Positions 5,430 to 7,049 of a DNA stretch of 13,779 nucleotides are shown in pieces; position 1 is the stretch's first letter; each line of letters opens with the position of its first letter. Under the pieces are notes generated by a model, which was not told the origin of the DNA, made no database searches, and saw only the letters and a list, made by a program, of their open reading frames with translations. Position numbers and translations under genes: made by a program. Source of the stretch: a virus (Duplodnaviria > Heunggongvirae > Uroviricota > Caudoviricetes); the IMG/VR virus record IMGVR_UViG_2534682222_000007, positions 1 through 13,779 of that record, one strand, 5' to 3'.

Positions 5430-7049
5430 TTAAGCCTGGTTGTTAAAACTGGTGACCTGACGCTTGCCGGACTGGAACGGAGCCCAGGTGGCAGCAGGAT
5501 CGCCTTCGAAGGTGCTGATCTGGCGACCGGTCGCATCAGCGCGTTTAATTTCGCGCAGCATACCAGGGCCAACAGACAGGCTTGCCGATTTCTGCGCGTC
5601 GGCGTAGATCGTCTTCTCGGCCACGCTCAGCAGGGCTGAGTCAGCGATAGAGGACAGGTCGACGGTTTTGAAATCAGGCGAATGCTCCTGAAGCTGGATC
5701 ATCAGGCGGCGGCGATATGCCAGCGGCTTTTCACCAGACAGCGGTACCGGCGCGCGCTTGCCGAAGCATGAGAACACGCTATCAGCCTTCACCTGTGCAT
5801 CGGCGACTTCGTTGCGCTCTTCATCGCTCAACTCGGTTGGGATGCGGGAGCGCAGGTCGGCGATCTCCTGGCGCAGCTGAGAGTCAGCTTTTTCTTTCGC
5901 CATACGTTCGGCCTCTTCGGCGTCGGCCTTCTCTTTGGCTTCAGCGTCTGCTTTTTCTTTCGCGGCTTTCTCTTCCGCGTCAGCTTTGGCTTTCGCCTCT
6001 TCGGCCTCTTTTGCCTCAGCATCAGCCTTTTCTTTCTTGGCTGCTTCTTCGGCATCGGCCTTGGCCTTCAGGTCTGCTGCTTCTGCGTCAGCCTTAGCCA
6101 TGCGTGCGTCAATCGCCTTATTGATTAGCGCTACGATTTTTTCCTCGTCCATCTTTTCAGCCTCGTTTGGAATGGAATCAGATTTAACACCAGTAGGGGC
6201 AAGGAGCTTGTCCCATACGCCCTGTTCACAAATTGCAACGTGGTCGAGCAATACCGGGGAACCTTCCACCAATAGAGGCTGACCGTCGATTTTGATGATT
6301 GAGTCCTGCATTTCGCTGTACGTGACGGTTGGTGAGGTACTCAGCTGCCGTGTCGCCATAATTTCGGCGGCTTCAGCGTCGTACACCCGGGCAATAGCCC
6401 AGACCTCGCCATTATCAGCAACCCAACTGTTCGTCAGGGTGCCGATAACACGCTTCGCAAATTCATCGCTATCGAGCTTGTTTTTCTCCGGGTGCAGCCA
6501 GATAAGCGGTACACCGGCAACTCGCTGGAGAAACTCTGGAGTGAGATAGTCGTCCGGGTTACGGAAGGCCATCTGTTGATCTGCAGAGCGCCAGGTAACC
6601 CCTGTTCCGGTTACCCGGATGGCGAACATCCACATGTTGATAAAGAATTGCGGGCTGCTTAGCGTCCCGTCAGCGATGAGCGCGGCCACCTCGGTTTCAT
6701 TGAGCGCCTGCTGCGCCAGCATCTCAGCAAAGGGCTGATGAAGCGGTTTGGGCATGTCTTCAATGTGGAACCACCCGGCGGCCAGTGATTCATCGTTAAG
6801 TTTCGCCTCGAACTTTTCCTGCACTTCGGCGCGAAACGTCAGATAATCGCCGTAAACGCTGTGCGGGGTCAGCGGGCCATCGTACTGATAACCCACCTCT
6901 TCCAGCACTTCGCGGCGCGCGGCATCAATAGCCAACTCGCCCGGCTCTACTGTACCGCCAGGCGGGCACCACGTACCATCATCCGAGCGCTGGATCAGGA
7001 AGACGAACTTACCCTGACGGAACATTATCCCGCTGCCAAAAATAGCCAC
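5430..7049 (-). CDS. Nudix hydrolase domain fused to a scaffold-like protein with a coiled-coil KADAEE repeat region (539 aa)
   Basis: Residues 32-54 ([23 protein letters not shown]) match the Nudix box GX5EX7REUXEEXGU exactly, with Nudix-like flanks ([20 protein letters not shown] upstream, [11 protein letters not shown] downstream). Residues about 317-390 are a charged Ala/Lys/Glu/Asp repeat typical of scaffolding proteins. The start is GTG at 7047-7049 with AGGAG about 9 nt upstream; the first ATG is at 7025. Confidence 0.65.
5880..6101. repeat. Imperfect coding tandem repeats encoding the KADAE(E/A)-rich coiled-coil segment of the scaffold-like protein
   Basis: The DNA shows reiterated gcgtcagcYttggc / gcatcagcctttt units, and the protein shows repeated [18 protein letters not shown]. 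The same low-complexity stretch produces the overlapping ORFs 5828..6055(-), 5935..6282(+) and 5717..6097(+) in the track. Confidence 0.6.

Follow-up and report, generated by a model that had tools for sequence, protein, structure and literature searches.

We analyzed 13,779 nucleotides of viral DNA (IMG/VR virus record IMGVR_UViG_2534682222_000007, positions 1 to 13,779; Duplodnaviria, Heunggongvirae, Uroviricota, Caudoviricetes; this whole stretch is called the window below) and focused on one open reading frame (ORF) in which a Nudix hydrolase domain continues, without a stop codon, into a DUF2213/COG3566 core, a coiled coil, and a conserved C-terminal domain. The sequence and the list of ORFs place it at 7049..5430 on the minus strand, with a GTG start and a product of 539 amino acids (aa); the original prediction of this fusion had the coordinates 5430-7049 right, to which the minus strand is now added. 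The host phage is a temperate enterobacterial phage of the Felixviridae type. The gene comprises the following features.

5430..7049, minus strand: full-length ORF (Nudix, DUF2213 protease-like core, coiled coil, C-terminal domain), from the ORF list
7059..7063, minus strand: Shine–Dalgarno (SD) sequence AGGAG for the GTG start, with a spacing of 9 nucleotides (nt), overlapping the stop codon of the MuF-like gene; direct reading
6705..7049, minus strand: Nudix hydrolase domain, aa 1-115; Pfam, AlphaFold, Foldseek
6888..6956, minus strand: Nudix box, aa 32-54, all consensus positions present; direct reading
6174..6704, minus strand: DUF2213/COG3566 core, aa 116-292, probable prohead serine protease; Pfam, PHROG, Foldseek, AlphaFold
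6492..6494, minus strand: H186, candidate catalytic histidine, invariant in 142 representatives and Bcep781 gp14
6339..6341, minus strand: S237 in the LSTSP motif, candidate catalytic serine, invariant in the same set
6240..6242, minus strand: H270 in the LLDHVAIC motif, candidate third catalytic residue, invariant in the same set
6161..6164, minus strand: internal SD sequence GAGG, 8 nt upstream of the ATG of M300; from the sequence
5430..6152, minus strand: predicted nested in-frame scaffold ORF, M300-A539, 240 aa; conserved Met, SD sequence, BcepB1A annotation
5844..6146, minus strand: Ala/Glu/Lys-rich coiled coil (KADAEE repeats), aa 302-402; AlphaFold, tandem repeat
5433..5825, minus strand: conserved C-terminal domain, aa 409-539, presumed capsid-binding end of the scaffold; AlphaFold, alignment

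One Unbroken Reading Frame

A single profile, phrog_6216, covers the full length of the 539-aa protein (E = 4e-248), and identical copies of the protein were found on 91 contigs. The alignment shows residues 1-8 to be conserved across relatives, and in the AlphaFold model they make up the opening strand of the Nudix domain; we therefore favor the GTG start over Met9, at which the KlebPhaCol preprint starts the gene product. That preprint defines the family Felixviridae and the order Felixvirales and uses this gene as a polymerase chain reaction marker, under the name "gp7 putative virion structural protein." The Felixviridae primers encode MFRQGKF and SFNNQA (window positions 7025-7005 and 5453-5433, minus strand) and amplify the gene from Met9 to the end.

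A fusion of this kind could be an artifact of assembly or annotation, a frameshift or a missed stop joining two genes. The frame is, however, unbroken in every relative examined, including the Klebsiella phages RothC, RothD, and Chronis, five Yersinia phages, and the Pantoea phage PdC23, as well as hundreds of prophage proteins from Escherichia, Enterobacter, Citrobacter, Salmonella, Klebsiella, Serratia, and other genera. Since the same single ORF recurs in independent isolates, in hundreds of prophages, and in ~80 clusters at ≤50% identity, the artifact is refuted, and the claim of an in-frame fusion without a stop is borne out. We also dropped the idea of a recent acquisition of the Nudix segment, as the GC content is even along the whole gene and the fusion is old and widespread.

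The N-Terminal Nudix Domain

The original prediction located a complete canonical Nudix box in the N-terminal ~120 residues and named a hidden Markov model search with PF00293 and a structure prediction as ways to check it. All three agree. Every position of the box is present (G32-x5-E38-x7-R46-E47-x2-E50-E51-x-G53, for the consensus GX5EX7REUXEEXGU) and invariant in an alignment of 25 relatives, and PF00293 matched aa 9-112 significantly, at E = 8.7e-17 and 61.8 bits against a curated cut-off of 21.1. A first AlphaFold run based on 25 close homologs modeled only the Nudix domain, with a predicted local distance difference test score (pLDDT) of ~30-50 elsewhere, and was replaced by one based on an alignment of 142 relatives, which reached a mean pLDDT of 88.6. 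In this final model the domain has the alpha/beta/alpha Nudix fold at pLDDT >90, and Foldseek places it among solved Nudix hydrolases with probability 1.00 and a target template modeling score of ~0.65; in the comparison of the 539-aa model with the Protein Data Bank (PDB), the matches listed (50) were all Nudix. On the strength of the model, the Nudix fold of aa 1-115 is certain.

The solved enzymes that superpose on the domain span Ap4A hydrolases, MutT, NudC, NUDX1, and RppH. Motifs downstream of the box were considered as a guide to the substrate and dropped as too weak. Filing the domain as NudE-like was likewise rejected: the BLASTP match to T4 NudE covers 34 residues around the box only, and no similarity beyond the box was found by that search.

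The Central DUF2213 Core

The central region, originally described as a domain of unclear function that was possibly protease related, is DUF2213/COG3566, so that the first part of that description falls while the guess at a protease gains support. Scanned alone, aa 120-310 matched Pfam DUF2213 (PF09979) with E = 7e-8 and 33 bits against a cut-off of 22. The family was not reported when the full-length protein was scanned against Pfam, and homologs carry DUF2213 in their precomputed annotation. Two PHROG profiles annotated as head maturation protease matched the core, phrog_530 with E = 3e-12 and phrog_2229 with E = 8e-7. The core is modeled at pLDDT >90 as a beta-rich domain (aa 134-290), to which the preceding helix 118-126 already belongs, and Foldseek against the predicted viral structures of BFVD matched it to DUF2213 proteins and to several entries named prohead (serine) protease.

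Across the 142 relatives, which are ~35-70% identical, R145, R154, R176, H186, S237, T238, S239, E262, H270, W279, and D280 show no variation; when the canonical DUF2213 protein Bcep781 gp14 was added, H186, S237, H270, and D280 were still invariant. The order His-Ser-His is that of the assemblin-type capsid proteases, and from conservation we infer that H186, S237, and H270 are the probable catalytic residues.

Several results count against the protease assignment. The BFVD matches are predicted structures with automatically assigned names. In hhalign comparisons, the core profile gave a probability of 0.1% with HK97 gp4 (used as a single sequence and as a shallow HK97-family profile) and of ~0.3% with P2 gpO, which amounts to no detectable sequence similarity. 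No Peptidase_S78/S77 or other peptidase family was found by Pfam at E ≤ 1 among 50 Nudix-less members, a sequence search of the PDB with the core gave 0 matches, and a profile search of the PDB gave only coiled-coil noise. With these results taken into account, we still regard it as probable that the DUF2213 core acts as a prohead serine protease.

The C-Terminal Half and a Predicted Nested Scaffold

The KADAEE coiled-coil repeat had been read correctly. Its DNA is an imperfect tandem repeat of 75 base pairs (5931-6069), and the structure prediction shows two long helices there (aa 302-346 and 367-402); the length of the coiled coil varies between relatives through indels in the alignment. Opposite the repeats lie two antisense ORFs of 115-126 aa (5717-6097 and 5935-6282, plus strand), which most likely arise from the repetitive, GC-rich nature of the coding sequence and do not represent genes. 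The C-terminal domain is compact (aa 409-525, with pLDDT >90 for 410-520) and is kept in nearly all full-length representatives, whether the Nudix domain is present or absent.

M300 sits in the linker between the core and the coiled coil, just after residues 297-299, which are disordered in the AlphaFold model. The position is conserved: counting from the GVWDK motif, 121 of 141 representatives have their first Met at a distance of 8-30 residues downstream, and 94 of them at 13-18 residues, against a background Met frequency of 2.7%. An SD-like motif (GAGG, AGGAG, AGGTG, or GGAG) is found 8 nt upstream of the equivalent ATG at seven loci of four lineages, the window, Chronis, Yersinia 29.18, and PdC23 forming one lineage and Shewanella QDWS, Rac-SA53, and Bcep781 gp14 being separate. 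BcepB1A, where the motif lies 9 nt upstream of the ATG, makes five lineages in all, and its GenBank record annotates gp25, "scaffold protein," as nested in frame within gp26, "head maturation protease, COG3566." Because of the conserved Met, the SD motifs, and the gp25/gp26 annotation, two products of the gene are most likely, and we consider a nested scaffold product starting at M300, which is a prediction, to be probable.

Distribution and Alternative N-Terminal Domains

We searched the core alone against 1.84 billion representatives at 50% identity and obtained 783 relatives at E ≤ 1e-3. Among the best 150 of the 783, the core is preceded by a Nudix domain in 81 and by some other extension in ~10, whereas 59 lack any extension. 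The catalytic REx2EE motif is intact in all of the Nudix-bearing clusters (~81 among these best 150), and all seven key positions are present in 75. The alternative arrangements include an ADP-ribosyltransferase of the Alt/VIP2 type placed ahead of Nudix and DUF2213 (representative P0338), a PBECR1 nuclease in the place of Nudix ahead of DUF2213 (P0300), and DUF5710 followed by Nudix and DUF2213 (P0230). One extension-less DUF2213 protein has a ParB-like nuclease domain elsewhere in the chain (PF08857, E = 1.5e-6), which may be another cargo domain in a different position.

Homologs of the scaffold without Nudix, which the original prediction had suggested looking for, thus exist, both in 59 of the 150 closest clusters and in the Escherichia phage Rac-SA53, which has the same head module with a DUF2213-scaffold protein of 430 aa and no Nudix domain. 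As the module of Rac-SA53 does without it, Nudix is an accessory that head assembly does not require. In complete Escherichia coli genomes, the Nudix and core segments were found in an identical set of 49 out of 5,426. Annotations of the family are uneven: five Yersinia phages name the homolog "glycosyl transferase" (vB_YenM_29.18, extracted locus 5001-6632), and the Rac-SA53 homolog (extracted locus 4983-6275) is named "TolA protein" with the note "nudix," despite having no Nudix domain.

These distributions bear on the possibility that the Nudix domain is a regulatory or structural pro-domain, which would hold the protease inactive, sense a nucleotide, or aid folding or assembly and would have no target in the host. 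In NrtR-type regulators, the Nudix fold acts as a sensor of ligands (PMC9503650), and in the 539-aa protein the domain abuts the first helix of the protease with hardly any linker between them (aa 113-117), as a pro-domain might. Yet the Nudix-less clusters and Rac-SA53 do without any N-terminal domain, and unrelated enzymes, an ADP-ribosyltransferase and a nuclease, occupy the same terminus. The sensor domains of NrtR-type regulators, moreover, usually lose their catalytic residues, whereas REx2EE is kept in every Nudix-bearing cluster. We find a pro-domain improbable.

Outside its own group, the nearest Nudix domain in cultured phages is at the C terminus of the portal protein of Bcep781, Bcep43, Bcep1, and BcepNY3. 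The portal Nudix of Bcep781 is 36% identical over the whole domain (122 aa), and a separate DUF2213 gene follows. A related Nudix domain is found in the Arthrobacter phage Sonali, in a gene annotated as a portal and MuF-like fusion protein.

The portal fusions are relevant to a further explanation, that Nudix is a late cytoplasmic enzyme, working while heads are built and discarded with the scaffold, with no delivery to the next host. It would clear ADP-ribose-type signals or toxic nucleotides, or counter defenses that sense head proteins, and the fusion would simply coordinate late expression. In its favor, phage Nudix proteins mostly stand alone, and the Bcep781 portal Nudix is tethered, which makes its ejection not obvious. 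CBASS, moreover, is known to be triggered late in infection by prohead proteases and other head proteins, a stage at which an enzyme attached to the protease could be active. CBASS signals, on the other hand, offer no pyrophosphate bond for a Nudix enzyme to cut, which speaks against a late anti-CBASS role, and co-expression needs no fusion. Nor would co-expression lead one to expect that the same Nudix clade was independently fused to two interior-facing proteins, at the portal C terminus and at the protease-scaffold N terminus, or that an Alt/VIP2-type ADP-ribosyltransferase and a PBECR1 nuclease stand at that same N terminus; Iyer et al. (PMC9503650) read such a fusion with a head protein as an indication that the domain is packaged. 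We judge a purely late role to be rather unlikely.

Relation to Described Systems

The original prediction knew of no described Nudix-scaffold fusion, and in this it was wrong. In a comparative genomic study, Iyer, Burroughs, Anantharaman, and Aravind (Iyer et al. 2022, Viruses 14:1977, PMC9503650) described Nudix domains fused to MuF, to the portal, and to a capsid-processing serine peptidase, inferred from genome context that such domains are packaged in the head and injected, and discussed ADP-ribosyltransferase and nuclease domain types among the head-component fusions that are likely packaged. Architecture and interpretation are the same as for the 539-aa protein. Their assignment is to a T4 NudE-like clade, whereas we find a likeness to T4 NudE in the box only and a match over the whole domain in the Bcep781 portal Nudix; their study, which is comparative genomics only, describes neither the nested scaffold start nor the Felixviridae members. 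The Pfam architecture DUF2213 + NUDIX is also listed in PMC8770471 (2022), and gp26/gp25 of BcepB1A likewise precede this work. The fusion is thus already recognized by comparative genomics, and the 539-aa protein is a further example. New here are a candidate catalytic triad for DUF2213, the nested start and its conservation, a count of how often the fusion occurs, the interchangeable N-terminal domains, and the link to the portal-Nudix clade.

BcepB1A gp26 resembles the 539-aa protein in having NUDIX and DUF2213 with the nested gp25 and in being flanked by the genes of a minor head protein and the capsid. It is distant, however, its Nudix domain being 46% identical over 70% of the domain and its core lying below the reach of tblastn at E = 1e-5, and its GenBank record is silent on the Nudix domain. 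Bcep781 resembles the window in gene order, with portal, MuF-like protein, DUF2213 (gp14), a small protein, and capsid, and has a Nudix domain of the same clade. There, in contrast, the domain is on the portal C terminus (gp17) and not on the N terminus of the protease-scaffold, and would be present in 12 tethered copies.

The layout of the 539-aa gene, with a conserved internal Met and an SD sequence at the boundary between protease and scaffold, is like that of lambda C/Nu3. In lambda gpC/Nu3 and P2 gpO, a single reading frame encodes both protease and scaffold, and the protease reaches the procapsid by way of the C-terminal part that the two have in common; lambda gpC belongs to the ClpP/S49 type of proteases. 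Neither lambda gpC nor P2 gpO is known to carry an extra enzyme. T4 Alt and the T4 internal proteins, like MuF-fused polymorphic toxins and polyvalent proteins, enter the capsid by means of a head-targeting element and leave it together with the DNA, in T4 after cleavage by the prohead protease. Unlike in T4 Alt and the MuF toxins, the proposed targeting element here is the protease-scaffold itself and not a short capsid-targeting peptide or MuF, and a domain of the type of T4 Alt/VIP2 ADP-ribosyltransferases precedes Nudix in one DUF2213 relative.

T4 also has a Nudix protein of its own, NudE (e.1), which according to its RefSeq note is active on FAD, ADP-ribose, diadenosine polyphosphates, and NADH. 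It is stand-alone, in contrast to the fused domain of the 539-aa protein. T4 nudE adjoins the lysozyme gene e and the internal-protein genes ipIII and ipII (extracted locus 2417-4491), a neighborhood that echoes the link of Nudix with the capsid interior. Two candidate sources of evidence were set aside: the proteome of phage 7-7-1 was unusable as virion evidence, as this phage has a different head module, and the NARP3 paper proved unrelated.

The Head Module

The late genes of the window run on the minus strand in the order lysis, Rha-family regulator, small and large terminase, portal, MuF-like protein, Nudix fusion, a gene of 286 aa, and capsid, with more genes beyond the capsid gene. The fusion therefore does occupy the slot of the scaffold, as had been proposed, between the MuF-like gene and the 286-aa and capsid genes. 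The neighboring features are listed below.

11433-11993, minus strand: Rha-family phage regulatory protein, between the lysis cassette and the small terminase gene (TIGR02681, E = 1e-32)
7889..9307, minus strand: portal protein, PF06381 (Phage_portal_3, E = 1.7e-17; phrog_146, E = 2.5e-68)
7062..7892, minus strand: MuF-like head morphogenesis protein, the upstream neighbor, without a C-terminal effector domain (phrog_324, E = 8e-30)
4554-5414, minus strand: 286-aa gene between the Nudix fusion and the capsid gene (phrog_6268)
3506..4537, minus strand: major capsid protein, DUF2184-type (phrog_6671, E = 3e-182)

The MuF-like protein matches positions 81-345 of the 624 positions of phrog_324 and lacks the rest beyond 345. 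Its gene and the portal gene have 4 nt in common, and the stop codon of the MuF-like gene falls inside the SD sequence of the Nudix gene, which together suggest translational coupling along the module. The capsid assignment has weaker additional support from phrog_264, "major head protein," and PF09950. Residues 170-240 of the 286-aa protein show a weak likeness to a beta-barrel module of endosialidase, tail fiber, and large virion proteins, and the PdC23 homolog is annotated "endosialidase"; the protein may be a decoration or minor head protein. In the matching E. coli prophages, RefSeq/PGAP names the portal "anti-CBASS protein Acb1 family protein." The NCBIfam Acb1 model does not match the portal of the window, which matches only the portal families PF06381 and phrog_146, and judging from these profiles the name looks like annotation carry-over and not like a second anti-defense gene beside Nudix.

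Proposed Loading of the Nudix Enzyme into the Procapsid

On balance we favor the view that the gene has two products and that the longer one loads a Nudix enzyme into the procapsid, where it would be freed, could possibly be ejected, and would hydrolyze a nucleoside diphosphate linked to another moiety (NDP-X). The long form of 539 aa would combine an active Nudix pyrophosphohydrolase, the DUF2213 prohead protease, the coiled coil, and the capsid-binding C-terminal domain, and the short form, from M300 to the end (240 aa), would be the scaffold alone. Because the two forms share the C-terminal part of the scaffold, the long form would be built into the interior of the procapsid, as lambda gpC is by means of an end identical to Nu3, and would take the Nudix domain along. 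The protease would then digest the scaffold, the linkers, and itself, leaving a compact Nudix domain of 13 kDa free inside the capsid. From there the enzyme could exit with the DNA and hydrolyze an NDP-X compound early in the next infection.

The steps of this scheme differ in strength. Comparison of sequences makes it fairly likely that the Nudix long form is incorporated into the procapsid. Loading best explains why members of one Nudix clade are recurrently joined to interior-facing head proteins, and it is favored also by the related proteins that carry an ADP-ribosyltransferase ahead of Nudix or a nuclease in its place. The original idea of targeting the enzyme to the prohead is accordingly supported at the comparative level, by the portal fusions, the alternative N-terminal enzymes, and the invariant catalytic residues. 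Retention of the domain in the capsid and its ejection with the DNA are possible, at somewhat below even expectation. For the substrate, the combination of ADP-ribosyltransferase and Nudix, together with the arguments of Iyer et al. (PMC9503650), points to compounds derived from ADP-ribose or NAD, a class that we propose only tentatively.

Three further considerations argue against the scheme or its later steps. A portal-tethered Nudix domain as in Bcep781 would not be ejectable unless cleaved and would fit a role in the cell or in the capsid equally well; given such variants, ejection is not a given. The nearest characterized Nudix enzymes are remote and act on many substrate types, so homology leaves the substrate class undecided. 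Searches of the literature found no virion proteomics, enzymology, or genetics of any family member.

A broader version of capsid loading would make the N terminus of the DUF2213 protease-scaffold a general position for interchangeable cargo, comparable to MuF toxin fusions or encapsulin cargo tags, in which Nudix domains of ~13 kDa, ADP-ribosyltransferases, or nucleases are packed. The Nudix domain would then be injected as a premade anti-defense enzyme and would destroy Thoeris-type glycocyclic ADP-ribose (gcADPR) or histidine-ADP-ribose (His-ADPR), NAD-derived toxins, or NAD-capped RNA before phage genes are expressed. In this general form we hold the proposal to be doubtful.

Implications

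If the Nudix enzyme is indeed packed and injected, it would provide a counter-defense that acts ahead of phage transcription. To specialists the architecture itself will be unsurprising, and it offers a good entry to what packaged Nudix enzymes do. The system is tractable: RothC, RothD, Chronis, and PdC23 are in culture, E. coli lysogens are available, the catalytic motif can be mutated, and Rac-SA53 serves as a natural Nudix-less control. Because the fusion occurs in over half of the closest relatives of the core, one experiment would be informative for a large group. For annotation, the names "glycosyl transferase," "TolA protein," and "NUDIX hydrolase" for the whole protein are corrected, and the DUF2213 family gains a candidate catalytic triad and a nested-gene model. 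The family that carries the fusion, Felixviridae, is common in the human gut (KlebPhaCol preprint) and is present in ~1% of complete E. coli genomes.

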